Below, piece after piece: positions 4,381-21,641 of a stretch of DNA of 26,462 nucleotides (its first letter is position 1; each line of letters starts with the position of its first letter). Source of the stretch: a candidate division WOR-3 bacterium (GTDB taxonomy: Bacteria > Hydrothermota > Hydrothermia > Hydrothermales > Hydrothermaceae); NCBI GenBank assembly GCA_039803745.1, contig JBDRZD010000026.1:1-26462 (forward strand), given 5' to 3'. The notes beneath the pieces are model-generated. The model was not told the DNA's origin. It did no database searches and saw only the letters and a list, made by a program, of their open reading frames with translations. A program made the position numbers and the translations under genes.

Positions 4381-5354
4381 TTTCTTCTCCTTCTTAAATC
4401 AAGAATTATATGAAGTAAAAACATAAAGCCTAAAAAACTTATAAAACAAATATAAAAGACCCTGACAACATAAACACCAAAAGAAACTTCCTTTTTTGCT
4501 TCAACATGGATTTTAACATCCTTTAATTTCCATTCCTTATCTTTATGGCATTTACCACAGGTAATAGTAAGATTTGCTGGATGTATTGAACTTTCAGGGT
4601 TTGAAGATGGTAAAATTTTGTGATATTCATGGCAAGAGATACAATTTGCAGTATGCAATTCACCTTTATATAAAAATATACCATGATAACTTTTTTTATA
4701 AGTTGAAAAACGTCTTGGTGGAATTCCATAAAGGGAAGTAATCCTTGTATTTTCATGACATTTTGCGCAAGTCTCAGGGATTTTTTTTGGAGAAACAGGA
4801 GATTCAGGAGATAAAGGAGAAAGTATTTTATGTTCATAATGGCAATCTATGCAGGTAGGAGCATCTTTAATCCCTTTTTTAATTCCCTCAAAATGAATAC
4901 TTCCTTTATATTCTTCTCCCTCTTTTTTATGACAGGAAGAACATTTTTCCTGCACAAGAATCTTACCACCATAAACTTTAAATGAAATTGTTTTATGCTT
5001 TCCATGGCATTCAAAACATTTTAACTTATTAAAGTGGACACTTTTCTCAAAATTCATCACAACCTCAGGATGACAGGAAGAACAAGAAGATTTTTCAATT
5101 TTTAAGGGATGAGGAACTTTTTCAAACTCGCTATGGCAATCATTACAATTTAATAAAAGGTGAGGAGAAATAGAAAGAGAATCTTTAATAAGATTTGAAT
5201 GGCACTTTAAACAATCACCGTATAAATTTAAATTAAATATAAAAAGATTAATCGTGGCAATCTTTACAAACTTTGTAATCCACCTCAATTTTTTTATGGC
5301 AATCAGAACATTTAAATTCATTTTCTTCAATATGCAATTTATGAGAAAAATCAC
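4377..5354 (-). CDS. Nonaheme cytochrome c with C-terminal TM anchor, paralog of 2675..3703; true start probably downstream of 5354 (TTG at 5288)
   Basis: 9 CxxCH, the same repeat units and the C-terminus LHIILDL. The track start overlaps the upstream gene by 107 bp, whereas TTG 5288 gives a signal-like MRWITKFVKIATINLFIFNLNLYG. Confidence 0.88.
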   Translation of the reverse strand: MIFLINCILKKMNLNVLIAIKKLRWITKFVKIATINLFIFNLNLYGDCLKCHSNLIKDSLSISPHLLLNCNDCHSEFEKVPHPLKIEKSSCSSCHPEVVMNFEKSVHFNKLKCFECHGKHKTISFKVYGGKILVQEKCSSCHKKEGEEYKGSIHFEGIKKGIKDAPTCIDCHYEHKILSPLSPESPVSPKKIPETCAKCHENTRITSLYGIPPRRFSTYKKSYHGIFLYKGELHTANCISCHEYHKILPSSNPESSIHPANLTITCGKCHKDKEWKLKDVKIHVEAKKEVSFGVYVVRVFYICFISFLGFMFLLHIILDLRRRRK

Positions 5355-6930
5355 CTATTTTTGTTTTAAGAATTTTATTATAAACATTTTTATGACAGAG
5401 AATGCAATCTTTTCTAACCTTTTCTTTGTGATGGCAGGAAGTGCAACCCTTTTCATCAAATTTCAAAACCTCACCTTTCGGTTTTTCATAATGAGGTCTA
5501 TGACATTCTGTGCAGTTTAAATTCTCTTCATCTAAATGGGTTCTATGGGAAAAACTTATATTAAAAATTAAACCCCTTTTTTCTTCAATACCCTGATGAC
5601 ATCTCATACATATTCTTCTCTCAGGTCTATATTTTATCCACGGCAATGGAAAATACTTATCTATTTTTCTCTCTTTTAAATCCTCATTTACAAATTCAAT
5701 TGCCTTTTCAAGTAAAACCTGAGAATAATCAATGTTATGAATTGCATATCCTTTTTTAACAAGTTCAAAATTAAAGAGAGCATCATTTAATTTTTGGGAA
5801 TTCTTTGGAAGAATTTTTTTTGCCTCTTCTATTATTTTTTCAGTCTTTTTTATCTTATCTTTTATACTCTCTTCCCACATTTTATAGATGTTATAATAAG
5901 AAGCACCATGACAATTCATACAGGAAAAAGCACCTGATGTTTTTATTCCATCACCTTCCATAAAATGACACCCCTCACATCTAACACCTGCTATATACAT
6001 TGCAGATGGCATTGGCGGAATTCCTTTGCCTCCTATTCCCATATAAAGGTCCTTTTGTGGAGAATGCCCTTTTAAGTGGCATGTAGAACAGGGAGTTTTT
6101 ACAACTGCTTCAATATCCCTTGGCTTTCCATGATATATCTCCTGGTGGCAGGCTATGCATTCAACTTTATGATCTGTAATATGGGTTTCATGCATATATT
6201 CAATTTCATCATATTTTTCAATTCTTTCTGGCTCATTATGACAGGAAAAACATCTTTCTTTTGGAACCTCACCATTTCCTTCAACAGAATGGGAATGACA
6301 AAAGATGCAATCCATCCTGTATCTTTCAACATCTTTATGATCAAATTCAAAACCTGCTTCAAAAATTTTTTTCTCAGGTGCTCCATGGCATAACTTACAA
6401 TCTGCTATATCCTCACCTATTCTTTCAACTTCCTTAAAGTGACATAAAAAACAGGTTGTTTCTGTAACTTTTATATGTGCTCCCTGAACAATCTGGGAAT
6501 GGCATGAAGTGCATCTTAACTTTTTCTTTCTTCTCATCTCGGTTAAATGGGGAGTATGGTCAAATAAAACATTTTTAAATAAAGTTTTGCCTGCAAGGAG
6601 CCTTTTGTCATGACACCTTAAACATGCTTCATCCTCAATTTCAGTCCATGGATTTGTTGAATATGTTCCTGTTATGTATCTTGCAACCATCGCAAGTGCC
6701 TCATATTTTTTCCTTATTTCAGAAGTAATGCCTGGTGGAATATGACATTCAACACAGGAAACTTCATTATGGGAAGATGTTTCCCAGGATTTATAATAGG
6801 GTTTCATAACATGACATATATTCCCACAGAATTTGGGATGAGAGGTAATTTGAATTAAAAGAAAAAATAAAACAACTCCTAAAACTATAACAAAAGAAGA
6901 TAATATAAAGATTATCTCTACTTTCCTCAT
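5248..6930 (-). CDS. Membrane-anchored NapC/NrfH-type 18-heme cytochrome c (17 CxxCH plus 1 CxxxCH)
   Basis: N-terminal TM helix, FCGNICHVM, SWETSSH, helical GYAIHNIDY segment, and C-terminal cytochrome c3/c7-like FSHxxH...CxxCH units. Confidence 0.92.
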   Translation of the reverse strand: MRKVEIIFILSSFVIVLGVVLFFLLIQITSHPKFCGNICHVMKPYYKSWETSSHNEVSCVECHIPPGITSEIRKKYEALAMVARYITGTYSTNPWTEIEDEACLRCHDKRLLAGKTLFKNVLFDHTPHLTEMRRKKKLRCTSCHSQIVQGAHIKVTETTCFLCHFKEVERIGEDIADCKLCHGAPEKKIFEAGFEFDHKDVERYRMDCIFCHSHSVEGNGEVPKERCFSCHNEPERIEKYDEIEYMHETHITDHKVECIACHQEIYHGKPRDIEAVVKTPCSTCHLKGHSPQKDLYMGIGGKGIPPMPSAMYIAGVRCEGCHFMEGDGIKTSGAFSCMNCHGASYYNIYKMWEESIKDKIKKTEKIIEEAKKILPKNSQKLNDALFNFELVKKGYAIHNIDYSQVLLEKAIEFVNEDLKERKIDKYFPLPWIKYRPERRICMRCHQGIEEKRGLIFNISFSHRTHLDEENLNCTECHRPHYEKPKGEVLKFDEKGCTSCHHKEKVRKDCILCHKNVYNKILKTKIGDFSHKLHIEENEFKCSDCHKKIEVDYKVCKDCHD

Positions 6931-8072
6931 CTTTTTCTAATATATATTATAAGGGAAATTGTAAATAAAATGAAAAGCCATAAAAACGGTAAAAATAATT
7001 TTCTGCTTTCAAAAAGTTTTTTTCTCCTTATCCCTTCCCTTTGGACTTCCTGTGCTATTGACTTTGATTTTATAGCAAAACTTTTTATTTCTTCCAGTTT
7101 CAGGGAATGGGAAACAGGTCCTGCTTCTAAAAGATATGTTTTTGCCTCTTCTATTCTTCCCAAAAAATCTTCTACGCTTACAGGAATTTTCTTTAAATCT
7201 TCAATTATTTCTTCTGTTTTTAATATTTCCATTTGGGTTGTTATAAATAGTGTATATATTTCTTCTGCTATTTTATAATTTTTTGAATCCTTTGAATGGC
7301 ATAAAAGGCATTTTTCTTTCCAAAGCTTGTGTGAAGCTTTTTTCACATAATGATTTTCATGGCATATCTCGCATTCTCCATAACCAAGTTCCTTCCAGAA
7401 TTCAGCATGTTTACTTTTCAAAAAATATTCCCTTGTCTTTATATGACATTTACCACAAACTTTCTCAATTTCTCCAATTCCAGCAGGTGTTGCACCATGT
7501 GTTCCATGGCAATCTTTACATGTTGGTGAATTTGTATTTCCCTCTCTTAATTTTTGAGCATGAATTCCCAAATTATATTCAAGAACAACATCAGAAGAAA
7601 TATTATATTTTTTCATCATGTTAAAATCACTATGACATACTCCGCATGTGCGGGGCAAGTTAAGAATATTTGTTCTTGAATTATTATCAAATGAACTTAA
7701 AATTTCATGATGCCCATGACAATCAGTGCATAGTGCTACTTCTTCATTTCCCCTTTTAAAGGCTTCTCCATGTTCTGAGGTATAATAAAGGATTTCCTGA
7801 TCAAAGGGAATACCATAAGATTTCATAATTTTTGGCGAGCTATGACATTTTGAACAGATTTTTATTATCTCTTTTCTTTTTGGTTTACCTATAAATCCAT
7901 CATGATGGGCTTTTTTAATATCAATAGCATTCAAGTCTCCACCGTGACAGGCATCACATTTAACTTTTTCTTTATAATGAATACTTTTTGTATATTCATT
8001 TTTGACTTCTGAATGACATATAATACATCCTTCATTTTGAGAAATAAGCATCAAAAAAATAAAAAGTTTCAT
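6927..8072 (-). CDS. Nonaheme cytochrome c with helical stalk and C-terminal TM anchor
   Basis: 9 CxxCH in the first ~260 aa, then a ~95 aa helical region and a hydrophobic tail LFLPFLWLFILFTISLIIY. Confidence 0.9.
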   Translation of the reverse strand: MKLFIFLMLISQNEGCIICHSEVKNEYTKSIHYKEKVKCDACHGGDLNAIDIKKAHHDGFIGKPKRKEIIKICSKCHSSPKIMKSYGIPFDQEILYYTSEHGEAFKRGNEEVALCTDCHGHHEILSSFDNNSRTNILNLPRTCGVCHSDFNMMKKYNISSDVVLEYNLGIHAQKLREGNTNSPTCKDCHGTHGATPAGIGEIEKVCGKCHIKTREYFLKSKHAEFWKELGYGECEICHENHYVKKASHKLWKEKCLLCHSKDSKNYKIAEEIYTLFITTQMEILKTEEIIEDLKKIPVSVEDFLGRIEEAKTYLLEAGPVSHSLKLEEIKSFAIKSKSIAQEVQREGIRRKKLFESRKLFLPFLWLFILFTISLIIYIRKR

Positions 8073-8986
8073 TGTCTATAAAAACCAAAAATTCCTGTAA
8101 TTAAAATTGTAATTAAAACTATTAAAGAAATTATTAAAGAGATTTTCCTTTTATGAAGAGGTAAAGGTTTACTTTTGTCAATCCATGGTAAGATAAAAAT
8201 TAAAAGGATGGCAAGAAGAATGAATAAACCAAAGAGTGTCTTTGGCATATAAATTTTCAAAAAATAAACTGGCAAAATAAAAAGGGGCAAATATACTTTA
8301 GGAGGAGTTTTAAAGGGATTATAAATTTCAACATGTTTAAAAGGAAAAAGAATGGAAAGAGTTAAGAGGATACCTAAAAAGATAGTGAAAATAATAAATA
8401 TATCAAAAAAATAAAAGTTATGAACATTTTCTCTTTCAAATTTAAGAAAAATTAAAATTAAAATGACTATTGATAAAAATGGAATTATAAGGGAATGAAA
8501 AATATAAAATCTTATATGAACAAACTCATTTATTAAAAAGTTTCCAAAAAAGAAAGAATAAATAAAATTTAAAATTGGAATATCTCTTATTATTTCCATA
8601 ACTCTTTCAACTTTCCAGTATAAATTATTTTCCATTGGAAGCAAAATACCTGTAAAATATTCAAAAAATAAAAATAAAAGGAAAAGAAATGTAAAAACCC
8701 ATAAAAATTTATTATTTTCATAAAGTTTATAATAAAAAATTTTAACAATTTCTAAAATGGAAAAAAACAAAAGGAAATTTGCACCCCATAAATGCATATT
8801 AAAGAAATAATATCCAAATGCCACATCCCTTATTATAAAAAGTGTGCTCTCATAACCTTTTCCCATTGAGGGTATATAATAAAATAGCATAAAAAATCCT
8901 GTTAAAGCCTCAAATAAAAAATTTATTAAAATTAAAATTTCAAGAAAATATTTTTTTAAAGGGAAAAATTTATTAAAGGATAACAT
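8069..8986 (-). CDS. Divergent cytochrome b/b6 (fused PetB+PetD type) of a Rieske/cyt b complex; only the heme bL ligands are retained
   Basis: Family landmarks LTG..L..YY.P..YES, HLWGAN, FTG.LLP, RFY.FH...IP, NP..TP and LPWID. His65 and His164 are present; the partner His positions are E79 and L178/I179. Adjacent to a Rieske gene. Confidence 0.85.
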   Translation of the reverse strand: MLSFNKFFPLKKYFLEILILINFLFEALTGFFMLFYYIPSMGKGYESTLFIIRDVAFGYYFFNMHLWGANFLLFFSILEIVKIFYYKLYENNKFLWVFTFLFLLFLFFEYFTGILLPMENNLYWKVERVMEIIRDIPILNFIYSFFFGNFLINEFVHIRFYIFHSLIIPFLSIVILILIFLKFERENVHNFYFFDIFIIFTIFLGILLTLSILFPFKHVEIYNPFKTPPKVYLPLFILPVYFLKIYMPKTLFGLFILLAILLIFILPWIDKSKPLPLHKRKISLIISLIVLITILITGIFGFYRQ

Positions 8987-9392
8987 AAAATTTATCCCCT
9001 CTTTTTTCTATTTCATATCTTTTTAATGGAAAGGAAGGAGGACCTTTTAATGGATTCCCATTTAAATCAAATAATGCACCATGGCAGGGACAATTTATCA
9101 TTCTTTCTTCTTTTTTATATTCAAGTATGCATTTCATATGGGTGCAAACTGCTGATATTGCAATGAAACCTGTTTCAGTTTTTATAAAAAATAAAGGCTC
9201 CTTTAAATGGGGGATAAACTTATATTCCCATGGCGCAAGTTCGTTTGCCCCTTTAATTTCTATTTCCTTTTCAAATTCTTCTCTCTCAATCTTTGGTAAT
9301 TTTATAAATGAAAGGATTGAACCGATAATTCCTAAAAACCATGCAAAAATTGTTCCTTTAAAAATATAATTTAAAAAATCCCTCCTTTTCAT
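8973..9392 (-). CDS. Rieske [2Fe-2S] protein (QcrA/PetC-like), Tat-anchored
   Basis: MKRRDFL Tat motif plus TM helix; box I CTHMKC, box II CPCHG, and GPP..PL. Confidence 0.93.
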   Translation of the reverse strand: MKRRDFLNYIFKGTIFAWFLGIIGSILSFIKLPKIEREEFEKEIEIKGANELAPWEYKFIPHLKEPLFFIKTETGFIAISAVCTHMKCILEYKKEERMINCPCHGALFDLNGNPLKGPPSFPLKRYEIEKRGDKFYVIL

Positions 9393-10570
9393 ACTCTCCT
9401 TTCTTTTTCATAAGGAGGTAAAAGCCATATCAAAAAAAGAAGAATTAAAAATGGTAAAAATAGTAATCCCATACTTGCATATATCCCCTCTCTTCCTATA
9501 AGCCCCAATTTATATATTGTTAAACCTCTTAAACTTTTTGAAAAAAGTTGACCTCCTATAACAACATTCCATCTTGTTGCAAAAATACCAATTAAAACCA
9601 TAACACTCACTAAAAAATATGTGAACTTCTTTGCACTATCAGATGAACCAAATATTCTTATATAACCTAAAAAAAGAATTGGTAAAATTGCTCCTATTAG
9701 TATTTGAAATATAAAAAGGGAAATAAATAGTTTTCCTTTTATAAGAATTTGAAACATATCAAAGAACTCTTCTGCTTCATAAATTCTTTGAACAAGATCA
9801 AGCATCTCAAGGGAAAAATCTATTATTATTGAATATAAAAGATATTTTGCCATTGCATCAAGACAGGGAATTGAGGGCTCTTTCCCTTTCAAATAATTCA
9901 AAACCATGTAAATGAAAATGACAAGGGCAATACCTGAAACCATTGCTGAAAAAAGGAAAATAACTGGCATTATAACACTTGACCACCAAGGATTTGCTTT
10001 AACAGAACCAAATATGAATCCAACATATCCATGCAAAAGGATTGCAGAAGGTATACCTATTACTGCAATAAATTTACTGAACCTTTTATCAAAATCTTCT
10101 ATTTCTTCATTTATCTCTTTCACACCAAGTGTCAAAATTTTATAAATAAATCCTTTTATTCCTTTATTTATTTTTGAAAATTCAATTATCTCTTTTCTAT
10201 ATTCAAGCCATATTTCTATTAATAAAATTGCCATTAAATACCATATATAAACAAATCCAAAAACTGCCATAGCAGATGAAAGATGAGGGGTTAAAAATAT
10301 CTCAAAACCCCTGAAAGGATGGGTAATATGGAAAACAAGTGGGAGCGGAGCACAAATCAAAAAAGCAAGGGCAGTTAAAAGGGAAAGCCTGTAAGTCGGT
10401 CTTACATCCCTTATTTCAAAAACTTTTTCTAAGGAAGCAAGAATGAATGCACCTGCAACAAGCCCTGTTATATATGGATAAAGAACAATTAATATACTCC
10501 ATCTTAGTTCTATTTCATTTGGATATATAAAACCCTCTATACTTCTTAAAACCTCATACAAATGTTCCAT
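9389..10570 (-). CDS. NrfD/PsrC-family membrane quinone-interacting subunit (CbcU-like)
   Basis: W..LIVLYPYITGLVAG, H..HP.R, TP..SSAM, RWNVVIGGQ; about 10 hydrophobic segments; follows an NrfC-like gene. Confidence 0.9.
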   Translation of the reverse strand: MEHLYEVLRSIEGFIYPNEIELRWSILIVLYPYITGLVAGAFILASLEKVFEIRDVRPTYRLSLLTALAFLICAPLPLVFHITHPFRGFEIFLTPHLSSAMAVFGFVYIWYLMAILLIEIWLEYRKEIIEFSKINKGIKGFIYKILTLGVKEINEEIEDFDKRFSKFIAVIGIPSAILLHGYVGFIFGSVKANPWWSSVIMPVIFLFSAMVSGIALVIFIYMVLNYLKGKEPSIPCLDAMAKYLLYSIIIDFSLEMLDLVQRIYEAEEFFDMFQILIKGKLFISLFIFQILIGAILPILFLGYIRIFGSSDSAKKFTYFLVSVMVLIGIFATRWNVVIGGQLFSKSLRGLTIYKLGLIGREGIYASMGLLFLPFLILLFLIWLLPPYEKERRV

Positions 10571-10575
10571 TTCTA

Positions 10576-11307
10576 TTATCTTACCTCCATATCCATATCC
10601 TTATAATAAACTTTTGGATGGGTTCTCAAATGGGGTTTTAATACCTGAAGTGGATAACTTTTTAAAAATTTATAAACAGGACTATCAGGATCATCTATCT
10701 TACCAAAAATTCTTGCATTTTGTGGGCACACAAGAACACAAACAGGTAAAAGCCCCTTTTTTATTCTATGATAACAGAATGTGCATTTATCAGGTGTTTT
10801 TGTTTCTGGATGAAAATACCTTGCACCATATGGACATGCCTGAATACAATAACCACAACCTATACAATATTTCTTATCAACAAGAACAACACCATCATCT
10901 GTTTCATAAGTTGCCCCTACAGGACAAACTTGAACACATGGGGCTTCTTCACATTGATTACAGAGTTTTGGAACAAAAAAACTCTTTGCTATCTTTTTTG
11001 GAGGATTAATCTTTTTAAATCCATTAAATCCGCCATCAGGTGATTCAACATAAACCTCACCATCCTCAAAGATAATATATCTTTCTATCCATGTCCTAAA
11101 ATAAAATGGATACTTTGGAACATTATTTTCCTCTTTGCAAGCCCTTACACACTCTCCACATCCAATACATTTACTTATATCAATTACCATTCCAAATTTA
11201 TTTTTACCATATCTAAAAGTTTGAACAATAAAATTTAAAAGTTCATTTTTAAAAAAGGGAGTTAAAATAAAAAACTTTAATTTATTTATAAAATCTCTTC
11301 TTGTCAT
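10576..11307 (-). CDS. NrfC/PsrB-family 4x[4Fe-4S] protein (CbcT-like), Tat signal
   Basis: MTRRDF; Cys groups CIGCGECVRAC, CNQCEEAPCVQVCP, CIGCGYCIQACP and CTFC...CVLVCP. Confidence 0.94.
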   Translation of the reverse strand: MTRRDFINKLKFFILTPFFKNELLNFIVQTFRYGKNKFGMVIDISKCIGCGECVRACKEENNVPKYPFYFRTWIERYIIFEDGEVYVESPDGGFNGFKKINPPKKIAKSFFVPKLCNQCEEAPCVQVCPVGATYETDDGVVLVDKKYCIGCGYCIQACPYGARYFHPETKTPDKCTFCYHRIKKGLLPVCVLVCPQNARIFGKIDDPDSPVYKFLKSYPLQVLKPHLRTHPKVYYKDMDMEVR

Positions 11308-11774
11308 TTTATAGAAGGATTATGAGGTATATGGCATTCAATACATTCTTCATCGGGATTATGTTCTTTCTCGTTAACCTGTGGAAAAGATGAAGGTCTT
11401 GATTCAATTTCAAAATGGCAAATACCACAAGAATTTCTTTTCATCTCTTTTAAAGGTTTATTTTCATCAGGATTTTCTATGTGGGCTGAAAGTGCCCCAT
11501 GACATACCTGACAATTTAAACTCTTGTGTGAATAAGAAATAACTTTTTTATACTCTTCTTCATGACAACTTTCACATTCCTTTATATCAGCATATTTTGT
11601 AGGCAAATTTATATTATCAGCAATTGAATCAGCCCTGTAATGCCCAAATTTTCCAAAACTCTTTGGAATCAAAAATGGTCTTAATATTATAAAAATTATC
11701 AAAATTCCAAAATAAATTCCAAAAAGCCTTTTTATATGAGAATACTTAGAGATTTCCTTTTTCCCCTCTTTCAT
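11304..11774 (-). CDS. Membrane-anchored tetraheme cytochrome c (CbcS-like)
   Basis: N-terminal TM helix, PKSFGKFGHYRA, 4 CxxCH (CESCH, CQVCH, CGICH, CIECH); directly upstream of the NrfC/NrfD pair. Confidence 0.88.
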   Translation of the reverse strand: MKEGKKEISKYSHIKRLFGIYFGILIIFIILRPFLIPKSFGKFGHYRADSIADNINLPTKYADIKECESCHEEEYKKVISYSHKSLNCQVCHGALSAHIENPDENKPLKEMKRNSCGICHFEIESRPSSFPQVNEKEHNPDEECIECHIPHNPSIK

Positions 11775-12811: not shown

Positions 12812-13917
12812 TCAGGTGTCATTGTGAGCACATATTTAAAACCTTCTGGTGAAACTTCTAATATAAAAACATCCCTTAAAGGGTCTTTACCTCTTTTAAA
12901 AGAAATATTTCCTGTTACACCTTGATAATCTATCTCTTTTAAATTTTTTAAAAATTCCATCCTTTCGGGTTTTTCCATCTTTTTAAGTACTTCATAAACT
13001 ATTCCAAGAGCATCATAACAAAGGGCGGATGTAAATTCAGGCTCACTTTTATATTTTTCCTTATATTTCCTGATAAATTCTTTTGTCTTTTCATAGGGCA
13101 AAAAGGGAGTAAAGGGTGAGGAAATGTATGCTTTTACATTTTCAAATATATCTTTATTTTTGCTTATAAGTTCATAGGAATACCATCCATCCCCTCCAAC
13201 AAAAACAGGATTAAATTTTACTTCAAGACACTCTTTTAAAATAAGAGGAACAAAATTCGCATATACTGGAAGAAATAGAACCTCTGGATTGAAAGAACTT
13301 ATCTTATCTATTTTTGAATAAAATATTGTATCATTTTCAAAGAAGTATTCAGATGTAAGAATTTCTCCTCCAAAATTTTTAAAGGAAATTTCAAAATTTC
13401 TTGATAAAACTTCTGAATATGGGTCATTTGCTTCATATAAAATGGCAACCTTTGTTTTTTTAAGTTCTTTATAAATAAATTTTGCAAGAAGACATCCCTG
13501 GATTGAATCAGTAAAAGTTGTTCTGAATACAAAATCACTCATTTTTGTAACAAGTGGATGGGTGGCAGTTGGTGAGATTAAAGGTAAGAAATATTTTTGC
13601 GAAATTGATGCAGCAACAAAAACATTTTTTGAAACAAGAGGACCTACAACGCACAAAACTTCTTTATCCTCTGCTAAAGCGTTTATTAATTCCTTTGTTT
13701 TTGCTGGCAAACCCTTGTTATCTTTTATTAGAATTACAAGATTTCTTCCAAAAAATTTTTCACCCTTTTTTTCTTCAAGAAATATGTTTATTCCATTCAA
13801 AGCATTTTTTCCATAAATTGAAGCAGGACCTTCAAGAGGAATTACAACACCAATCTTAATACTTGGTGCCTTGCATGAAAGAAAAATCAGAAAAATAAAT
13901 ACTATTAATTTTTTCAT
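12808..13917 (-). CDS. LivJ/LivK-like (type I periplasmic-binding fold) lipoprotein
   Basis: Lipobox FLSC; IKIGVVIPLEG, ISPTATHP, VFRTTFTDSIQG, GGDGW, YDA, GVTGNISF. Paralog of 11771..12811. Confidence 0.88.
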   Translation of the reverse strand: MKKLIVFIFLIFLSCKAPSIKIGVVIPLEGPASIYGKNALNGINIFLEEKKGEKFFGRNLVILIKDNKGLPAKTKELINALAEDKEVLCVVGPLVSKNVFVAASISQKYFLPLISPTATHPLVTKMSDFVFRTTFTDSIQGCLLAKFIYKELKKTKVAILYEANDPYSEVLSRNFEISFKNFGGEILTSEYFFENDTIFYSKIDKISSFNPEVLFLPVYANFVPLILKECLEVKFNPVFVGGDGWYSYELISKNKDIFENVKAYISSPFTPFLPYEKTKEFIRKYKEKYKSEPEFTSALCYDALGIVYEVLKKMEKPERMEFLKNLKEIDYQGVTGNISFKRGKDPLRDVFILEVSPEGFKYVLTMTPE

Positions 13918-13952
13918 AATTGTTTTATTATATTAAAAATTATTCTTTGTTT

Positions 13953-14462
13953 TTATTTTTCTTTTGGAACTGGATGCTTTATTTTCTCATAAAATTCTTC
14001 AAACTTGAATTCCTTATATGTGGGGCTATTTTCATTATGGCACTCTATGCAATTCTTTTCTGTAGGTCTTATAAGACCATAATCTTCTGGTTTTGCCTCA
14101 CCACTATAAATTTTCTTCATTACACTCATTGCCTTATATTCAGAACCCGGTCCATGACAATCTTCACAACCTATTCCATTTTCATTATCCTTTCCATTAT
14201 GGCAAGAAAGACATTTTTCAGATTTCTGTGGATCTTCTATTCCCATTTTCTTTGCAATTTCTTTTGATTTTTCAGATGCGAGAGTTTCAAATGCCTTTGA
14301 ATGGTTTGATTTTTCCCATATTTCCCATTGGCTTCCCTTCTTTTCACCCTTGTGGCATACTTTACATTTTTCAGACCCTACATACTCAAACTTCTTTTCC
14401 TCTTTTTTCTCCTGTGCCATACAGAATGTTATTCCTATTACAAGTATAAGTAATTTTTTCAT
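13953..14462 (-). CDS. Soluble periplasmic tetraheme cytochrome c (c554/c552-like)
   Basis: Sec signal, YVGSEKCKVCH, WEKSNHSKAF, 4 CxxCH including GCEDCHGPGS; AGGAGG RBS at 14467-14472. Confidence 0.9.
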   Translation of the reverse strand: MKKLLILVIGITFCMAQEKKEEKKFEYVGSEKCKVCHKGEKKGSQWEIWEKSNHSKAFETLASEKSKEIAKKMGIEDPQKSEKCLSCHNGKDNENGIGCEDCHGPGSEYKAMSVMKKIYSGEAKPEDYGLIRPTEKNCIECHNENSPTYKEFKFEEFYEKIKHPVPKEK

Positions 14463-14474
14463 ATAACCTCCTTT

Positions 14475-15626
14475 TTAAAAACAAAAAAATTTTAAAGTTT
14501 TTAAAAATAAAAAGTCAAACAATCTATTTTTTATGATTAAAAAAATTCTAACTGGATAATAAAGAAAAAAAAGGGGCTCGGGAAGTAAAATAAAATTCAA
14601 AACATTTTCATCAGGATTTAAAAGGGAAAGTGTATGATATATTTTCTGAGGGAATGACTCAATAAAAATTAATGGTAACAAATCCTTTTTAAATCCGTAA
14701 GCCTCTTTTTCTTTTAAAACAAAATCTTTTAAAAAAATTGGTAAATTTTTGAATTTTAAAAAACTTGGTAAATCCGTTTCAAAAATAAAATTTGATAAAG
14801 TTAAACTAAGTTTTACAATTTTTAAAATGTGAAGTATTTTAGAAATTTCATAAACTTTATAAAAATCAATCTCTTTTTTAAATTTCAAAATGAATTTATG
14901 AATATCAAAAAGAAATTTTAAAAGACTGTATTTATGTAAAAATGAATGGATTGAAAGAAGAATTATTTCCCACTCCTTTGAAAAGATATAAATTTTTAAA
15001 CCATTTAAATCAAGATTTTCAAATTCAAAAAATTTCTCAAAATTTTTAATCTTTTTAAATCTTTTTGGAAGAATATCAAAATGAATTTCAACTAAAAAAT
15101 TTTCTTTATAGAGCCTGTATTCATTATATAATCTGAAATGGATTTTTTTTAAAAAGTTTTCCCTTTTTTCATCCAAATCAAAATAAAAACCTTCATTTTT
15201 TAAAATATCAATTGCTTTAAATAAATCCCTTTCAAAAACAAATATATCAATATCATTAAAACTCCTTGAAAATAAATCTTCATAAACTCTTTCAGAAAGC
15301 AAAAAACCCCTTAGAGGGATTGCAATTATATTATTTTCCATTAATTTTTTTAATATATAAATTGTTCTTTCCTTTAAAAATAAAACTCTATCTTTATTTT
15401 TTTCATAAAGAATTTCAAGAATTTTAAAAAAACTTTCAGGAATTAATTCTTTCCTATTTAAAAAAAATTTATAAAAAATTGGATAAATATCTTCACTTAT
15501 CAAAATATTTAAAAATTTTTCCCAATCAATTCTTCCATTTTTTTCAATTTTTTCTTTTCTTAAAATCTCAGTTATTAAACTTTTCTCATAGGAGAAATTA
15601 AAATCTTTGAGTGATCTCAAGCCCAT
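14475..15626 (-). CDS. Nucleotidyltransferase family protein (NTP_transf_5-like, PqqD/RiPP-associated)
   Basis: PLRG...Y....RSFNDIDIFV (LKG/DxD signature), VEIH, IH..H...LKFLFDI; context with PqqD and kinase. Confidence 0.82.
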   Translation of the reverse strand: MGLRSLKDFNFSYEKSLITEILRKEKIEKNGRIDWEKFLNILISEDIYPIFYKFFLNRKELIPESFFKILEILYEKNKDRVLFLKERTIYILKKLMENNIIAIPLRGFLLSERVYEDLFSRSFNDIDIFVFERDLFKAIDILKNEGFYFDLDEKRENFLKKIHFRLYNEYRLYKENFLVEIHFDILPKRFKKIKNFEKFFEFENLDLNGLKIYIFSKEWEIILLSIHSFLHKYSLLKFLFDIHKFILKFKKEIDFYKVYEISKILHILKIVKLSLTLSNFIFETDLPSFLKFKNLPIFLKDFVLKEKEAYGFKKDLLPLIFIESFPQKIYHTLSLLNPDENVLNFILLPEPLFFLYYPVRIFLIIKNRLFDFLFLKTLKFFCF

Positions 15627-16347
15627 TTTGATACAAAAATTCTATATCTTTCCAGAAAATTTTATAAAAAGGCACTTCCTCTACAATTCTCACTAAATCC
15701 CTTAATCCTTTATTTTTTATATATTCCTTTCTATTTATACAAATTGCTGAAAGGTATAAAAAGGCTTTCTTTTTATCCATTAATGTTATCTTATTGATTT
15801 TTGAAGGTATTGGAAATATAAAACATTTTAAAGGGAAAAAATTATCTTTTATTATTTTTTTTGGAAAAACAAAAAATTCTTCAAAATTTTCATCTTCAAT
15901 TGTTTCTTCATCATCCACATATTTTTTAAAATCCCTATGAAGTTTTATTGGCTGGGGATAGGGAAATGAAAAAAATTTATTTTTTATAATAAGAGGTGAA
16001 ATATCATCACTTAAATAAAATAAATTTTTTGAAATTAAAAATGCTAATAGACTTTTACCAACCTTTGTCCTTCCCCCTATTAAAAAAGCCTCTTTACCAT
16101 TTGAAATACTTGATGCATGGAATATTAAAAAATCGTTTATTTTTGGAAATATTTTTTCTCTTATATAAAAATCAAAATAAAGTAAGAGAAAAAAAGGAGA
16201 TTTTTTATAATTTAAATCAAATTTAAAATCACTTTTACCTTTAAAATCTTTAAAGTATTTATAATATTTTTTAAAAATAAAAACTTTATCTCCTTCTTTA
16301 TCTTGAATTTCAATCCTTTTTAATAATATTTTTTTTAATGAATTCAT
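15598..16347 (-). CDS. HPr kinase-related P-loop kinase
   Basis: FHASS, Walker A GRTKVGKS, YLSDD; lacks the N-terminal domain of true HprK. Confidence 0.82.
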   Translation of the reverse strand: MNSLKKILLKRIEIQDKEGDKVFIFKKYYKYFKDFKGKSDFKFDLNYKKSPFFLLLYFDFYIREKIFPKINDFLIFHASSISNGKEAFLIGGRTKVGKSLLAFLISKNLFYLSDDISPLIIKNKFFSFPYPQPIKLHRDFKKYVDDEETIEDENFEEFFVFPKKIIKDNFFPLKCFIFPIPSKINKITLMDKKKAFLYLSAICINRKEYIKNKGLRDLVRIVEEVPFYKIFWKDIEFLYQNGLEITQRF

Positions 16348-16591
16348 TAATTATCTTTATAGTATCCTGTGAAATTTTTTCCTTTTCAACATTTAATGTT
16401 TCAGAAATTATATCAATCATCTCCTTTATTGTAAAATTTCCATCACACATATTAAGTATTACACTTGCACTATTATTTAATAAAAAAACCTCATCATTTA
16501 ATGGATCATAGACCACGCTTCCATCCTCTATATTTTCTATTTTTAAATCTTCTCTTTTTTGGGGCTTAAAATCTAAAGAAATTTCTTTCAA
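16310..16591 (-). CDS. PqqD family protein / stand-alone RiPP recognition element
   Basis: 93 aa; P......IEDGSVVYDP....FLLNNSASVILNMCDG..TI.E.....D....I.EF....II. Confidence 0.9.
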   Translation of the reverse strand: MKEISLDFKPQKREDLKIENIEDGSVVYDPLNDEVFLLNNSASVILNMCDGNFTIKEMIDIISETLNVEKEKISQDTIKIINEFIKKNIIKKD

Positions 16592-16776
16592 AATTTATCT
16601 TCACCTTCTTCATTTTCTTCAAAAAATTTTTTCTCTTTTCCCCCAAATGGTGTTCCTGCCCATAGTTTTTTTTGAGTAAAGGCAATTATAACAGGAACTG
16701 ACCATATACTCATTTTAAGAAGTTTTCTTCTTATTTCATCTATTTTTTCTTCCTTCTTTTTAATTTCTTCTCTCAT
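16588..16776 (-). CDS. Putative RiPP-like precursor peptide with a twin-arginine-like leader
   Basis: AAGGAG RBS at 16782-16787 and ATGA overlap with pqqD. Sequence IRRKLLK-MSIWSVPVIIAF-TQKKLWA|GTPFGG followed by an acidic tail. Confidence 0.72.
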   Translation of the reverse strand: MREEIKKKEEKIDEIRRKLLKMSIWSVPVIIAFTQKKLWAGTPFGGKEKKFFEENEEGEDKF

Positions 16777-16807
16777 ATTTTCTCCTTTGTAAAAAATTTA
16801 TATTTTA

Positions 16808-16836
16808 ATTATACACTAAAAAAAATTAAATTTCAA
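16808..16836 (-). promoter_or_regulatory. Sigma70-type promoter for the peptide/PqqD/kinase/NTase cassette
   Basis: Minus strand TTGAAA (16836-16831), N17, TATAAT (16813-16808). The -35 box lies inside the 3' end of the HAD gene. Confidence 0.65.
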
Positions 16837-17503
16837 TCAAAACAGAGACTATTTTTCTATAATCTTTAAAATTTTCAAAAACAAAATCTGGTGAAAATTT
16901 TTCAAGTTCTTCCTTTTTAAAATTTCCTGTTGCCATCCCAATGGAGATAAATCCTGTTTTTTTTGCAGCAATAATATCTAATGGTGTATCCCCTATTACA
17001 ATAACTTTTTCAATTTCGCATTTTTTATATTTTTCTGCCCTTTCTTTTGCAATTTTAAGGATTTCCTCTCTTTTTTCTGAATCAGATGCAAATGCTCCTA
17101 TTTCAAAAAGATCCCATAACCCTGATGGTAAAAGTTTTATTTTTGCCCCTTCATATATATTACCTGTTGCAATTCCAACTATGAATTCTTTTAATTTTTT
17201 TAATTCAATTATCAATTCCCTTACACCTTCCATAACTCTATAATCTTTATTCCATACAGTTTCCTTTAAATAGTAAAGATAATTTTCAAAGACCTCTTCT
17301 ATTTCCTTTTCATCTGGCTCTTTATTTAAATTTTTTTTAAATATTTCTTTAATTATCTGAGGATCTGTCATTCCATCAGGATTAATACCCTTTAATGGCT
17401 CAGAAATATTATATAATTTTTCAAAAGTTTTTTTAAGCGCACGGGAACCCGCATAACCTGACCATATTAAAGTTCCATCTATATCAAATAAAACAAGTTT
17501 CAT
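16826..17503 (-). CDS. HAD-superfamily hydrolase (phosphoglycolate phosphatase-like)
   Basis: LFDIDGTL, ATGN, IGDTPLD. Confidence 0.92.
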   Translation of the reverse strand: MKLVLFDIDGTLIWSGYAGSRALKKTFEKLYNISEPLKGINPDGMTDPQIIKEIFKKNLNKEPDEKEIEEVFENYLYYLKETVWNKDYRVMEGVRELIIELKKLKEFIVGIATGNIYEGAKIKLLPSGLWDLFEIGAFASDSEKREEILKIAKERAEKYKKCEIEKVIVIGDTPLDIIAAKKTGFISIGMATGNFKKEELEKFSPDFVFENFKDYRKIVSVLIEI

Positions 17504-17853
17504 TTAAAAATTATATAATCCTTTATTTTTTCAAGCTTTTTCTTTCCTATTCCTTTAACTTTTAAAAGGTCATCGTAATTTTTAAACTTTTCCCTTTCTC
17601 TTAAATTTATTATAATCCTTGCAGTTTTTTCACCTATTCCAGGAATTAAAATTAATGATTCAAGAGGAGCAGAATTTATATTTATTTTAAAATTATCCTC
17701 TTCATAAAAATAATTTGAACTTTCTTCTCTATTTTCATTTTTTAAACCTTTATAAATGTTTCCTGTAAATATCATAAAAAAGAAAAGTAATAAAATAAAT
17801 CTTTCAAAGGGCAATAATGCAAAACTATATTTTATTTTTTCAAAAAGTTCCAT
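17500..17853 (-). CDS. ComEA-like helix-hairpin-helix DNA-binding protein
   Basis: N-terminal TM helix; ININSA...L..IPGIG...A..II..R; DLLKVKGIG.K. Confidence 0.88.
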   Translation of the reverse strand: MELFEKIKYSFALLPFERFILLLFFFMIFTGNIYKGLKNENREESSNYFYEEDNFKININSAPLESLILIPGIGEKTARIIINLREREKFKNYDDLLKVKGIGKKKLEKIKDYIIFK

Positions 17854-18610
17854 CTTTTAAAAGTTCCCTTGTTATTTCAAGATAAATTTTAAAAAAATCA
17901 GGAAAATTTTCATAGAGATATTTTTCATGTTTAAAAAGCGTATGATAATCTTTTCTCTTTGCAGGTCCTGTTAATGCCTTATAAACTCCTTCTTTTTTTA
18001 TATTTTCAAAAGTTGTTTTTATAAGGGGGAAAAGGATTTCAAGAGGAAGATGGGTATTTTTTAAAATTTCTTCAGATTTTCTTAATAAAAAAACAAAAAA
18101 ATTTGATGAAATTGTTGAAGCAAGATGGATTAAAAATTTTTTTTCCTCTGTAACTTTCAAAATTTTTACATCATTGTTAAAAATTTTTTTTAAAACCGTG
18201 TAAATCTCCTCATCACCTACAAAACTTGCATATATATCTTTAAAATAAGAAGGAGAAGGAAATGAAAAAGTCTGGATAGGATGAAATGAGCCTAAAAAAA
18301 ATCCTTTTTCTTTTAATGGATTTAAAACAGAAAGGGGTAAAGTGCCAGAAAGATGAACTGCCATTTTTTTACCTTCAATCTTTACCTTTTTAGCAAATTT
18401 TTCAATCTCATCATCCTTTATACATATAAATATCAAATCTGAATTTTCAAAAACTGAATCAGGTGAATCTTCAGGTTCCCCTATTATACTTTTATATTCT
18501 TCTCTTTTCTTTTCGCTTTTTGTCCACCATAAAAATTTAAGATTTTTTTCTTTTAAATATAAAGAAAGGGAAAAACCAACATTTCCAATTCCTATAATTC
18601 CAAATTTCAT
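17840..18610 (-). CDS. Rossmann-like plus DUF2520 oxidoreductase (PanG-like ketopantoate reductase family)
   Basis: GIGNVG, HLSG, SFHPIQTF, H.A....SNF, ALTGPA.R.D. Confidence 0.85.
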   Translation of the reverse strand: MKFGIIGIGNVGFSLSLYLKEKNLKFLWWTKSEKKREEYKSIIGEPEDSPDSVFENSDLIFICIKDDEIEKFAKKVKIEGKKMAVHLSGTLPLSVLNPLKEKGFFLGSFHPIQTFSFPSPSYFKDIYASFVGDEEIYTVLKKIFNNDVKILKVTEEKKFLIHLASTISSNFFVFLLRKSEEILKNTHLPLEILFPLIKTTFENIKKEGVYKALTGPAKRKDYHTLFKHEKYLYENFPDFFKIYLEITRELLKDGTF

Positions 18611-19347: not shown

Positions 19348-19377
19348 ATTATAAAGAGAATTTATTTTATAAGTAAA
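19348..19377 (-). promoter_or_regulatory. Possible sigma70-type promoter for the 19323 operon
   Basis: TATAAT at 19353-19348 with TTTACT at 19377-19372 (18-nt spacer). The AT-rich background weakens this call. Confidence 0.35.
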
Positions 19378-21641
19378 ACACCTATACCTTTTTGAATACC
19401 TTCTAATCTTATAAAATACTTACCCGATGATTTAATTTTTAATGTTATTCTTTTTGAGTTATTTAAACTTAATCTTTCTACTTCTTTTCCTGTTATATCA
19501 TAAATTTTCAAATAACCTGAATAAGGTAAAGAAAATTTTAACTCAATATTATCTTTAAAAACAGAACTCTTTAAAAACAGAGGAGAAATTTTATTTGCCA
19601 TTTCATAGATTTGTGTAAAATAAAACTTTTTAAAATAGATATCAAAATTGCCACTTCTTGAATCTTCAAATACAGTATACATGTAATTGTCTTTTACTGC
19701 AATTCTTGGGAAAAGGGAAAAGTTTTGATAAGATGATATTTGAAAGAAAGGAGACCAGGTATTTCCTGTATCATTAGAAAAAACTCCTCCTATACACCAT
19801 TTATCTTCATAACTATTATAATTTGCCCATATACATAATAGAATTCCATCTCCTAAATATTTTATACTTGGATAAATTCCGCTAAATGGATAACTTATTA
19901 AATTTACAGGTTCTGTCCAAGTATTTCCATAATCATTACTTTTTCTATAAAATATTTGCCAGAGATTGCCAGGCATAGAAGCATCAAGGTTTGAATAGAC
20001 AAGATGAAGATTTCCATAAGGATCACTTTCTATTGAGGGGAAATATGAATAAATATTTTCATTATTATTTGTAATTTTTTTATAATTATTCCCACAGGGC
20101 TCTTTATCAATCCATATATTCCAAAAAGAATGCTCCCAATGATTTGCAACCATTTCCTGCCATACACAGTATAAGCTTCCATTTATATAAGTAATGCTTG
20201 GAGAATAGGAATATTTATATATATCCATTCCAACAAGTTCTGGTGGTAAAAATGTGTTTCCTGTATCAATACTTAAATTTCTCACAATTCTTGGATTAAA
20301 CTGCCCATAATAATCCATTGATACACAATTTATTTTATTTTCAAAAATTTTAATTGCAGGGCGATGGGTAATTTCACCGGCATTTAAAATAAAAACTTCA
20401 TTACTCCAAGTATTCCCTCCGTCTCTCGATTTTTTACCTTTAATCTTCCATACATATGTTTTTTCATTTGTATAAATTGTATCACAGATTTCTGATGCAA
20501 CAACATATATTAAACTATCTCCATAACCAGAAATTGAAGGATAAAGATATTCCTTATCTAAATTACCTTGAAAAAGAACAATAGGCTCTGTAAAGGAATT
20601 GCCAAAATCTTGAGATTTAGTATAATAAATTTGATAAAATCCGTCTGTATTATCAGAAAATACAACATGGATACCTGCCTCATTTACAAAAATATCAGGG
20701 AAAGAAGATCTTCCCGATGAATTACTTATGTTCATTTCATCTTGATAAAAAATTGGTAAGTTCTCCTTTTCTTTAAATCCCTCTATCATTTCACTCATTA
20801 CCTCTCCATAAAAATTTGGAATATCAAGACCCATTAAATAAGCAATTGTTGGAGCAATATCAACATAATCCCTTCTTAAATCCACAGCTGTATCAACTTT
20901 TATATCAGGACCTATTGCGAGAAAAGGAATATGCCTGCATCCATGACAAAAATCCCCGTGCCCTTGATAGGAATAATCATGTCTTCCATGGTCAGTTGTT
21001 ATTATAAATAATGTGCTATCCTTATAAAATGGGTCATCTTGAATTTTTTTATACACTTCAAAACATAATGAGTCAGCCTGCTTTATTGCATTTATATAAC
21101 CATTCCATCCTCCATGATGACCCATTTCATCAATTTCTGGAAAAACCGCATATATAAACCTTGGATGGTCTCTATCCATTATATTTACAAGTGAATCATA
21201 GACTTCAATATCATCCTGACTTGATTGAGTTAAAACAATTTTTGGAGAATAAGATTCTCCAAAACCGGGTAAAAGGCTGATTGGATATTTCCATATTGTA
21301 TTTTTACCAGAAATATAATAAACTTTATTTTGAGGTAAATTTAAATATTTAATCAGATATTCACCAATTCCTGGGAAAAATTGTTTTTGAATTTGAGGTG
21401 TGTAAATGTTTAAAAGTAAAATTTCATGGGATGAATTTATTATTACTGAATGGGATGCGGTTGTATATGTAATACCGGTTACATAAAAATTTGTATAAAT
21501 TGTTCCTTTTGGTCTTAAAGAATCCCATATAAATTTTGTATATAAATTCTGTGCTTCAAAGCATTCATTATTCCTTATTCCATCAATGTTTAAGACTATG
21601 CAATTTTTAGCAAGAAAAATTAAGAGAAATATTAAGTTCAC
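19362..21641 (-). CDS. Secreted alkaline-phosphatase-superfamily domain, Asp-box (BNR) beta-propeller and T9SS type A CTD-like tail
   Basis: GTG start with GGAGG RBS. AlkP motifs IDGIR, TYTTASH, EIDEMGH and TTDHG. Five SxDxGxT/SW/F boxes. Tail LKIYDITGKEV...SSGKYFIRL. Confidence 0.83.
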   Translation of the reverse strand: MNLIFLLIFLAKNCIVLNIDGIRNNECFEAQNLYTKFIWDSLRPKGTIYTNFYVTGITYTTASHSVIINSSHEILLLNIYTPQIQKQFFPGIGEYLIKYLNLPQNKVYYISGKNTIWKYPISLLPGFGESYSPKIVLTQSSQDDIEVYDSLVNIMDRDHPRFIYAVFPEIDEMGHHGGWNGYINAIKQADSLCFEVYKKIQDDPFYKDSTLFIITTDHGRHDYSYQGHGDFCHGCRHIPFLAIGPDIKVDTAVDLRRDYVDIAPTIAYLMGLDIPNFYGEVMSEMIEGFKEKENLPIFYQDEMNISNSSGRSSFPDIFVNEAGIHVVFSDNTDGFYQIYYTKSQDFGNSFTEPIVLFQGNLDKEYLYPSISGYGDSLIYVVASEICDTIYTNEKTYVWKIKGKKSRDGGNTWSNEVFILNAGEITHRPAIKIFENKINCVSMDYYGQFNPRIVRNLSIDTGNTFLPPELVGMDIYKYSYSPSITYINGSLYCVWQEMVANHWEHSFWNIWIDKEPCGNNYKKITNNNENIYSYFPSIESDPYGNLHLVYSNLDASMPGNLWQIFYRKSNDYGNTWTEPVNLISYPFSGIYPSIKYLGDGILLCIWANYNSYEDKWCIGGVFSNDTGNTWSPFFQISSYQNFSLFPRIAVKDNYMYTVFEDSRSGNFDIYFKKFYFTQIYEMANKISPLFLKSSVFKDNIELKFSLPYSGYLKIYDITGKEVERLSLNNSKRITLKIKSSGKYFIRLEGIQKGIGVLLIK

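Follow-up and report, generated by a model that had tools for sequence, protein, structure and literature searches.

How a small ribosomal peptide could be modified by cytoplasmic enzymes and then be released outside the membrane is the question raised by a four-gene operon in a 26,462-nucleotide stretch of DNA (the window hereafter; contig JBDRZD010000026.1, assembly GCA_039803745.1) from a candidate division WOR-3 bacterium of the Hydrothermota. The first gene of the operon, an open reading frame (ORF) with an ATG start at 16588..16776 on the minus strand, encodes a 62-amino-acid peptide (MREEIKKKEEKIDEIRRKLLKMSIWSVPVIIAFTQKKLWAGTPFGGKEKKFFEENEEGEDKF). It is followed by genes for a PqqD-family protein, i.e., a discrete recognition element (RRE) of the kind that binds leaders of peptides made on the ribosome and modified after translation (RiPPs), for an HprK-related kinase and for a nucleotidyltransferase. 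That the peptide is a substrate of these neighbouring enzymes, with a leader that docks on the RRE, is well supported. That the same leader also serves for export and is cut by the housekeeping signal peptidase I (SPase I) after residue A40 is the best available explanation as a whole, and is advanced tentatively; export through the twin-arginine translocation (Tat) system specifically is a more doubtful part of it.

The peptide gene and its operon

The features of the peptide gene and of the three genes downstream were as follows.

16588..16776, minus strand: precursor or substrate gene, 62 amino acids and a TGA stop; in the ORF list, with 9 homologues, and found among 272 genomes of the phylum only in family f1.
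16657..16776, minus strand: leader (residues 1-40), with a charged N-region, the RR motif, a hydrophobic run and a basic c-region ending in L-W-A; conserved in 11 of 11 sequences.
16714..16734, minus strand: twin-arginine motif I15-K21 (RR-K-L-L-K); R16, R17 and L19 invariant in 11 sequences, the RR aligned with the invariant RR of alignment A6 (Pseudomonadota leaders).
16675..16713, minus strand: M22-T34, a 13-residue hydrophobic run with W25-x-x-P28-x-I30; candidate RRE-docking strand and hydrophobic region (h-region); W25, P28 and F33 invariant.
16657..16674, minus strand: Q35-A40, where a basic c-region (K/R at positions 36 and 37) leads into L38-W39-A40, a predicted site of SPase-I type that would be cut just ahead of G41; K37, W39 and A40 invariant.
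16591..16656, minus strand: core (residues 41-62, 22 residues), G-T-P and then an acidic tail ending in Phe; T42 codon at 16651-16653, candidate phospho-acceptor.
16782-16787, minus strand: Shine-Dalgarno sequence AAGGAG, 5 nt before the ATG, read from the sequence.
16808..16836, minus strand: promoter-like site TTGAAA-17-TATAAT (11/12), favoured by its position alone, the 17 such sites in the region equalling the shuffle mean (17.0).
16310..16591, minus strand: PqqD-family RRE, 93 amino acids (PF05402, E 1.1e-9, 38.9 bits).
15598..16347, minus strand: HprK-related kinase, 249 amino acids, with H77 and the P-loop G92..G97-K98-S (TIGR04352, E 6.8e-4, 18.8 bits).
14475..15626, minus strand: PF14907 (NTP_transf_5) nucleotidyltransferase, 383 amino acids (E 9.8e-35, 120.7 bits).

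The peptide gene is real, as displayed by its Shine-Dalgarno sequence, its conserved homologues and the overlap of its stop codon with the TTG start of the PqqD gene (TTGA); all four minus-strand ORFs overlap or abut. A translation start at M22 was ruled out: residues 8-21 are conserved and the Shine-Dalgarno sequence precedes M1, and since position 22 varies in the relatives (M, L or I), translation starts at M1. The residues picked out in the original prediction (RR within 15-21, W25/P28/I30, Q35-K36-K37, and L-W-A followed by G41) were located exactly in the translation of 16588-16776. The stretch after RR-K-L-L-K is uncharged over 14 residues (M22-Q35), and T42 is the sole hydroxyl residue of the core, which is devoid of Ser and has a C-terminal Phe. 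Three metatranscriptome runs gave 0, 0 and 2 reads over 13900-17900, both reads on a cytochrome gene (13953-14462), a coverage too thin to gauge expression.

The combination of motifs was searched for in the 6,216 six-frame ORFs of at least 40 amino acids of the genome. RRx-hydrophobic-hydrophobic together with 12 or more uncharged residues among the first 45 amino acids was present in 14 ORFs, five of which also had a small-x-small site, and a single one, ORF 16588-16776, added [WY]xxPx[LIVFA]. The composite of RR, run, small-x-small and [WY]xxP is rarer than chance in this genome and unique to the peptide ORF.

The downstream proteins were related to known families at various levels. The PqqD-family gene, the single such gene found in the genome, encodes a protein scoring 22.2 bits against TIGR04353 (curated cut-off 35), with profile matches to PqqD 5sxy (9.4e-4) and TbiB1 (0.64). 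The 249-amino-acid kinase-like protein had no Pfam match and reached 18.8 bits against TIGR04352 ('HprK-related kinase A'), whose curated cut-off is 200. The profile of this protein and its relatives matched the solved HPr kinases 3tqf (6.5e-4) and 1knx (5.9e-3), and hhalign aligned the family with 12 bona fide TIGR04352 kinases over 210 columns (Prob 99.2%, E 2.7e-19). The HPr-rel-A system, as defined in NCBIfam, consists of the TIGR04352 HprK-related kinase A and the TIGR04353 PqqD-family chaperone, and the RR-leader gene is not part of that definition. The kinase and PqqD of the window both score below the curated cut-offs, and their homology with this system holds at profile level only.

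Conservation and distribution of the peptide family

The word-based search yielded 9 homologues of 59-67 amino acids (67-98% identity) out of 13 candidates. A profile search over 272 species genomes of the phylum found the peptide in four of them, all in family f1 (E 5e-37 to 4e-24): the window's own genome (G000, 93.5% complete), G043 and G044 from the same genus, and G041 from a sister genus. All other matches in these 272 genomes had E values of at least 0.0016, and the search returned no peptide match in G042 (75% complete). The PqqD, kinase and PF14907 genes followed the peptide gene in all four genomes. Two matches (P0004 and P0015) were obtained among 1.84 billion cluster representatives, and the metagenome scan returned one locus, whose peptide is identical to that of G041. 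Scanning genome contigs with P0015 gave two spurious matches of 11-14 residues and nothing else.

Residues 1-43 were common to all 11 sequences of the family, and K11-I12-D13, R16, R17, L19, W25, P28, F33, K37, W39, A40 and T42 were invariant. P0015 (74 amino acids), a singleton from a 1,682-base contig that is known from its protein sequence alone, was alike over residues 1-44 and then displayed an unrelated, Cys-containing hydrophobic C-terminus instead of the acidic tail; a frameshift may be the cause of this difference. Taken together, the shared leader and the differing C-terminus of P0015 look like the conserved-leader and variable-core pattern of a precursor.

The expectation that RR would be conserved among homologues was borne out in the 11 sequences of the family, as well as in 26 Pseudomonadota leaders (see below), where the first Arg was invariant and the second conserved in at least 90%. 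The expected W/YxxP stood within the family, where W25 and P28 are invariant, and did not extend beyond the lineage, the aromatic residue being lost there and only the Pro kept (22 of 26 leaders). A conserved A-x-S/T had also been anticipated; the actual pattern is [LVM]-W-A followed by G/Q-T-P.

A leader family shared with HPr-rel-A loci of Pseudomonadota

TIGR04352 searched against 401 Pseudomonadota genomes gave 128 matches at E <= 1e-10, 62 of them above the curated cut-off, and the 30 best of these 62 loci were examined with 1.5 kb of flank on each side. Directly upstream of the PqqD-kinase pair, 26 of the 30 loci encoded an RR-leader ORF of 157-275 amino acids (longest-ORF lengths), with N-termini reading RR-x-[LF]-[LIFT]-K/R/Q and then an uncharged run. 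A regular expression retrieved 25 of these ORFs and L051 was recognised by eye. As for the four remaining loci, L069 and L073 showed no PqqD ORF upstream of the kinase in the 1.5 kb flank, L070 had the PqqD gene with no RR ORF within that flank, and at L072 the contig ended 1.4 kb upstream. No Pfam or NCBIfam family was matched above cut-off by any of the 26 RR-leader proteins. When aligned with one another, they had an invariant first Arg (R13), while R14 and the Thr of a 'P-V-I-x-T-L' block were at least 90% conserved.

The 11-sequence family and the 26 Pseudomonadota leaders aligned in hhalign with a probability of 94.6% and an E value of 6.6e-8. The alignment spans 35 columns, from residue 9 to residue 43 of the peptide, and pairs RR with RR, K21 with K, P28 with P, and A40 with the final A of A-x-A. 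The score of 38.4 compared with a maximum of 16.6 and a median of 7.3 for 100 column shuffles, and with 5.5 for the reversed alignment. The reciprocal search agreed with this result. A hidden Markov model (HMM) built from the Pseudomonadota leaders only (A6) was run on 64 genomes from the window's class, each in six frames, and its sole match in the window's genome was the peptide ORF (E 4.3e-4, 20.8 bits); it also retrieved the orthologues in G041 (E 2.2e-9), G043 and G044. The sole other match below 1e-3 (G089, E 1.4e-5) was judged spurious, lying in an antisense frame inside a 675-amino-acid ORF of a GC-rich genome.

In the Pseudomonadota leaders, G, A, S or V takes the place of W25, and the common denominator of the docking segment across phyla appears to be the Pro and the beta-branched residues that follow it. 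Because of the leader homology and of the cleavage register described below, the peptide can be regarded as a diminutive representative of a family of leader-bearing HPr-rel-A cassette substrates that spans phyla. The two sets of loci share a homologous kinase, a homologous leader and the gene order leader protein, PqqD, kinase, PF14907-type gene. They differ in the substrate: here, a 62-amino-acid peptide whose acidic core has 22 residues and which carries W at Pro-3 and Thr at +2; there, a Cys-containing protein of 157-275 amino acids with Ser at +3. No paper was found in a literature search on HPr-rel-A, TIGR04352, TIGR04353 or HprK-related kinase.

Some of the loci deserved separate mention. 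Six Pseudomonadota leaders (L053, L057, L061, L062, L065 and L066) carried three extra residues between RR and Pro, and K, T or R at -3, followed by a conserved F-G-S or F-F-G-S; this subgroup may be processed differently. Two others (L058:590-1102 and L076:684-1169) gave sub-threshold matches to PF23710 (DUF7155; E 0.0076 and 0.028) over the leader and the start of the mature region, so that PF23710 may be a relative of the RR-leader substrate family. Within the window's own class, L040 (G052:C1:79687-82905) displayed a trio of PqqD, kinase-like and PF14907-like genes, the only such neighbourhood among the kinase-like genes of families f6 and f8 (L036-L041). No RR-leader ORF was present in the 3.2 kb seen at L040, where the upstream gene is a 201-amino-acid ORF, and the A6 HMM found none in G052. 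In family f8 (L036-L039 and L041), kinase-like genes of 238-278 amino acids, related to the window's kinase at E 1.7e-7 to 3.6e-4, had no adjacent PqqD gene, and those of L036-L039 stood beside a conserved 190-amino-acid gene on the opposite strand.

Predicted cleavage register and comparison with linear polyphosphorylated peptides

Linear polyphosphorylated peptides (LPPs) were described from the lppA-K-B-S-D-N cluster of Paenibacillus alginolyticus (Popov et al., Nat Commun 2026, PMC13381572). In this cluster, LppA is the precursor, LppK the HprK-like kinase, LppB a discrete RRE, LppS an archaeal-type SPase-I-like leader peptidase, LppD an MsbA-like exporter and LppN a nucleoside triphosphate (NTP) transferase (PMC13381572). 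The leader consensus is YxxPxVLxHQxIxFETxxS, the published RRE motif is [Y/W]xxPx[L/V/I/F/A], and paeninodin-type lasso leaders use WxxP (PMC13381572). Docking into the RRE is by residues Y-16 and P-13 of LppA. LppS makes its cut after T-1, which needs F-3, E-2, T-1 and presentation of the leader by LppB, and LppK adds several phosphates to Ser3 of LppA, i.e., Pro+15 (PMC13381572).

By its predicted cut, the window's peptide falls into the same frame. The cut between L-W-A and G proposed in the original prediction has its Pro at -13, as in the mapped LppA cut, and a cut after A40 puts W25 at -16, P28 at -13, I30/I31 at -11/-10 and L38 at -3, which is exactly the LppA register. T42 then comes at +2, adjoining the position of LppA Ser3, and +3 is Pro. 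All 11 sequences of the family had L, V or M at Pro+10 and A at Pro+12. Among the 22 Pro-bearing Pseudomonadota leaders, Pro+12 was A or S in 19, residues agreeing with both the -3 and -1 rules were found in 15, and S or C occupied Pro+15/+16, the position of the LppA phospho-Ser3, in all 22. The cross-phylum leader family thus appears to share the docking-to-cut geometry of LPPs.

Likenesses between the two systems include a leader with [Y/W]xxPx[V/I] and a variable C-terminus (W and P being invariant in the 11 peptide sequences), a discrete PqqD-like RRE with an HprK-like kinase and an uncharacterised NTP transferase in the absence of a lasso cyclase (here in the order A-B-K-N), and a Pro 13 residues before an SPase-I-type cut (predicted here) with a hydroxyl residue just after it as phospho-acceptor (a candidate here). 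The differences are as follows. The window's operon lacks the SipW-type peptidase LppS and the MsbA-like exporter LppD; the leader has 40 residues versus 27 and resembles an export signal, since it also has RR-K-L-L-K, an unbroken hydrophobic run and a c-region that is basic; the peptide has W where LppA has Y, and Thr at +2 in place of the Ser at +3; and its host does not belong to the Bacillota, to which LPPs are called restricted (PMC13381572). By its sequence, the module would be a small and divergent version of the uncharacterised HPr-rel-A cassette, related as a cousin to the LPP pathway of Bacillota.

The lack of a dedicated protease and exporter, noted from the start, was confirmed within its scope: no peptidase or exporter/transporter gene was present among the ORFs of the 26.5-kb window (an MsbA-like LppD was not searched for elsewhere in the genome), and the SipW-type peptidase model TIGR02228 had no match at E<=0.01 in the whole, 93.5% complete genome. 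A single bacterial-type SPase I was encoded in the genome, on contig C16.

Probable docking of the leader on the PqqD protein

Docking of the leader on the PqqD RRE is likely, as judged from adjacency, translational coupling, the WxxPxI motif and leader homology. Complex prediction from the PqqD and peptide alignments gave a score of 0.60, the best of three controls scoring 0.00; its runs agreed in at least 97% of contacts and the partner had a predicted local distance difference test (pLDDT) value of at least 60. In calibration, 116 of 157 solved complexes attained the mark, as did 2 of 215 mismatched pairs; only 18 of the 157, but both passing mismatches, did so with a score of 0.60 or less. 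This pass may reflect likeness only, RRE-leader complexes being among the solved ones.

Phosphorylated lasso peptides (paeninodin, pseudomycoidin) resemble this locus in the WxxP motif of their leader, in a B1-type RRE and in two tailoring enzymes, an HprK-type kinase and a nucleotidyltransferase; they differ from it by their lasso cyclase and B2 peptidase. A lasso peptide was ruled out here, neither of these two enzymes being encoded at the locus. The only PF13471 match of the genome was a 491-amino-acid membrane transglutaminase-like protein on contig C18, and Asn_synthase (PF00733) matches were located on contigs C17 and C19, not in the window. The kinases of these phosphorylated lasso peptides act on a C-terminal Ser, whereas the 62-amino-acid peptide ends in Phe and its core is free of Ser.

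Possible export signal and alternative explanations

The textbook Tat consensus is S/T-R-R-x-F-L-K, the residue before RR is usually polar, and basic residues just before the cut ('Sec avoidance') disfavour the Sec pathway. The leader shows R16-R17-K-L-L-K, 14 uncharged residues, K36-K37 and A40 at -1, and its predicted cleavage site has L, V or M at -3 (tolerated, not typical), W at -2 and A at -1. The organism had been supposed to possess Tat on account of other signals in the window, and TatA and TatC are indeed encoded in the genome, with TatC also in four relatives. In Pseudomonadota, the leader stands at the N-terminus of Cys-containing proteins, which gives these an export-like look. 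The nearest named protein-atlas clusters were Tat-signal-bearing fragments (PF10399 0.87, Me-amine-dh_L 0.86, Fe_hyd_SSU 0.86, PF10518 0.84), with Cxxx radical-SAM target peptides also among the neighbours (0.85); all are under the 0.9 bar and count as leads only. Modification by a kinase and a nucleotidyltransferase is cytoplasmic, and therefore a post-translational export tolerating a bulky group would be called for.

Several observations weigh against a leader that serves both docking and Tat export. On the side of docking and modification, the score of the PqqD-peptide complex grades as weak support only, four of the 26 Pseudomonadota leaders lack the Pro, and W25 is not kept outside the lineage. 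LppK did not accept a Ser3Thr substitution (PMC13381572), and the acceptor of the window's peptide would be a Thr, at +2. The predicted cleavage site is also kept unevenly in register, since six of the 22 Pro-bearing leaders (L053, L057, L061, L062, L065 and L066) have no clean -3/-1 site and L048 also fails the -3 rule. On the side of export, I or V precedes RR, L, V or M replaces A at -3, and the Tat-signal HMMs TIGR01409 and PF10518 gave no match on the peptide. As a test in this AT-rich genome these two models are uninformative, since they had no match anywhere in it, even on the RR signals of the window's Rieske and NrfC-like proteins, and the control thus failed. In five Pseudomonadota genomes, TIGR01409 found 7, 11, 13, 12 and 6 signals at E<=1, none of them one of the five homologous leaders. 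In hmmscan, one of 26 substrates touched TIGR01409 (E 0.95) and two touched the formate-dehydrogenase Tat model TIGR02811 (E 0.036-0.076); given this near-silence, the leaders are at best atypical Tat signals. The family thus seems Tat-like by motif and atypical by profile, and the conservation of RR could stem from docking on the enzymes instead of from TatC.

An unlikely alternative, which survives best among those considered, is that the leader serves docking only. RR and the hydrophobic run would then act in recognition, maturation would be cytoplasmic, and cleavage and export would fall to unlinked proteins, or the product would stay inside. This agrees with the silence of the Tat HMMs on the leader family, and the conserved helix-prone segment before and through RR (with K11-I12-D13 invariant) could be a handle for the kinase or transferase. 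Leader segments bound by RREs are hydrophobic beta-strands with [Y/W]xxP, and the published LPP leader is no signal peptide and yet is cut in the same register (PMC13381572). Docking alone would, however, leave several facts aside: the Pseudomonadota relatives, with an N-terminal leader mostly ending in A-x-A on Cys-containing proteins of 157-275 amino acids, have the layout of exported proteins, no dedicated peptidase or exporter is encoded in the window and no SipW-type peptidase in the genome, and RR-x-L-[LI]-K, followed by its uncharged run and its basic c-region, comes close to the Tat consensus.

It is quite unlikely that the run is a Sec-type signal or an uncleaved anchor, inserted through Sec/YidC to give a Sec-exported peptide or a small membrane-tethered protein that would display its acidic tail on one side of the membrane, modification taking place there or ahead of insertion. 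Sec signals would likewise be matched by the positive n-region, the hydrophobic core of 13 residues and the small residue at -1, and the negative Tat HMMs point the same way, as do the structure-based atlas neighbours, mostly single-helix membrane or anchor segments (TM 0.45-0.60), a comparison uninformative for so short a chain. The kinase and nucleotidyltransferase nevertheless depend on cytoplasmic ATP and NTP, so modification must precede export, and K/R36-K37, conserved just before the cut, disfavour Sec. Moreover, 13 hydrophobic residues interrupted by a Pro are short for a stable transmembrane helix, and the twin arginine is invariant or nearly so across two phyla.

That the peptide is no substrate at all, i.e., a small regulatory or structural protein merely sharing the operon with a coincidental motif likeness, is very improbable: the narrow occurrence of the small-peptide form (4 of 272 phylum genomes, two representatives among 1.84 billion) would suit it, but the order RR-leader gene, PqqD, kinase recurs in 26 of 30 distant loci, the leader homology stands well above shuffles with a register common to the experimentally characterised LppA, and the gene is translationally coupled to that of PqqD.

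Proposed maturation route and its significance

For a leader that would serve docking and then export, we infer from the sequences the binding, the modified residue, the cleavage, the export route and the order of the steps as follows. In the cytoplasm, PqqD would bind the beta-strand-prone segment of the leader around W25-P28-I31. It would then present the junction to the kinase, which would phosphorylate Thr42, and the nucleotidyltransferase may extend the phosphate. The leader, with RR-K-L-L-K, a 13-residue h-region, a basic c-region and L-W-A, would subsequently serve as a twin-arginine-type export signal. Finally, the housekeeping SPase I would cut after A40 and free a decorated acidic 22-residue peptide outside the cytoplasmic membrane. 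An export-signal leader of this type would stand in for the dedicated LppS peptidase and LppD ATP-binding cassette exporter of LPP clusters.

In a bolder form, which we hold to be somewhat unlikely, the Tat signal itself would be the leader read by the RRE. PqqD would act as a signal-peptide chaperone withholding the precursor from TatC until Thr42 is phosphorylated, perhaps nucleotidylated or glycosylated, after which Tat export and the SPase I cut would follow, and the leader would be a portable tag for cargoes ranging from peptides of 22 residues to Cys-containing proteins of about 200 in at least two phyla. The closest concept is the proofreading by TorD/DmsD/NapD-type proteins, in which a cytoplasmic chaperone binds a Tat signal and holds the substrate until its maturation is complete. 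The likeness is one of concept, in a cytoplasmic binder of the export signal, and of signal layout (RR-x-hydrophobic-hydrophobic-K, short h-region, basic c-region, AxA-type site). It differs in that the proposed binder is a PqqD/RRE winged-helix protein, in that maturation would be phosphorylation or nucleotidylation and not cofactor insertion, and in that Tat HMMs do not recognise the peptide leader. A literature search for a twin-arginine leader read by a RiPP recognition element found no paper; the supplementary cluster lists of PMC13381572, outside that search, might hold non-Bacillota cases.

If true, this route would join leader-guided peptide modification by RREs with general protein export by Tat and SPase I, two fields that have so far stood apart. 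It would account for the working of PqqD, HprK-like kinase and PF14907 protein in cassettes that have no peptidase and exporter of their own, and would supply the orphan HPr-rel-A system with a defined substrate class. A very small substrate that is easy to synthesise, the 62-residue peptide would lend itself as a model to work on the specificity of the kinase (Thr42), on docking to the RRE (W25/P28) and on dependence on Tat. Peptide engineers, too, would take an interest in a natural way to export peptides that were modified in the cytoplasm. A phage-display study speculated on the use of Tat for lanthipeptides and mentioned preliminary attempts that failed (PMC5686179).

Neighbouring genes of the window

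A gene for a HAD-family hydrolase (16826-17503, minus strand) lay upstream of the peptide gene in all four peptide-bearing genomes, with a 69-amino-acid ORF inserted between the two in G041. This hydrolase, a phosphatase-type enzyme, may belong to the module.

The rest of the window harboured respiratory cytochrome genes, binding proteins, housekeeping genes and one enzyme putatively sorted by the type IX secretion system (T9SS). The latter is a 759-amino-acid protein (19362-21641, minus strand) with a metalloenzyme/sulfatase-type domain and a BNR-like region, whose C-terminus matched a Por secretion (T9SS) sorting domain weakly, at E 2.9e-4 and with 21.5 bits where the cut-off is 27. The respiratory run (1-11774, minus strand) encoded several multihaem cytochromes c and two cytochrome-b-like membrane proteins. 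It included a Rieske protein with an N-terminal RR motif (8973-9392), NrfD (9389-10570), an NrfC-like 4Fe-4S protein also bearing an RR motif (10576-11307) and a small cytochrome c (11304-11774), all on the minus strand.

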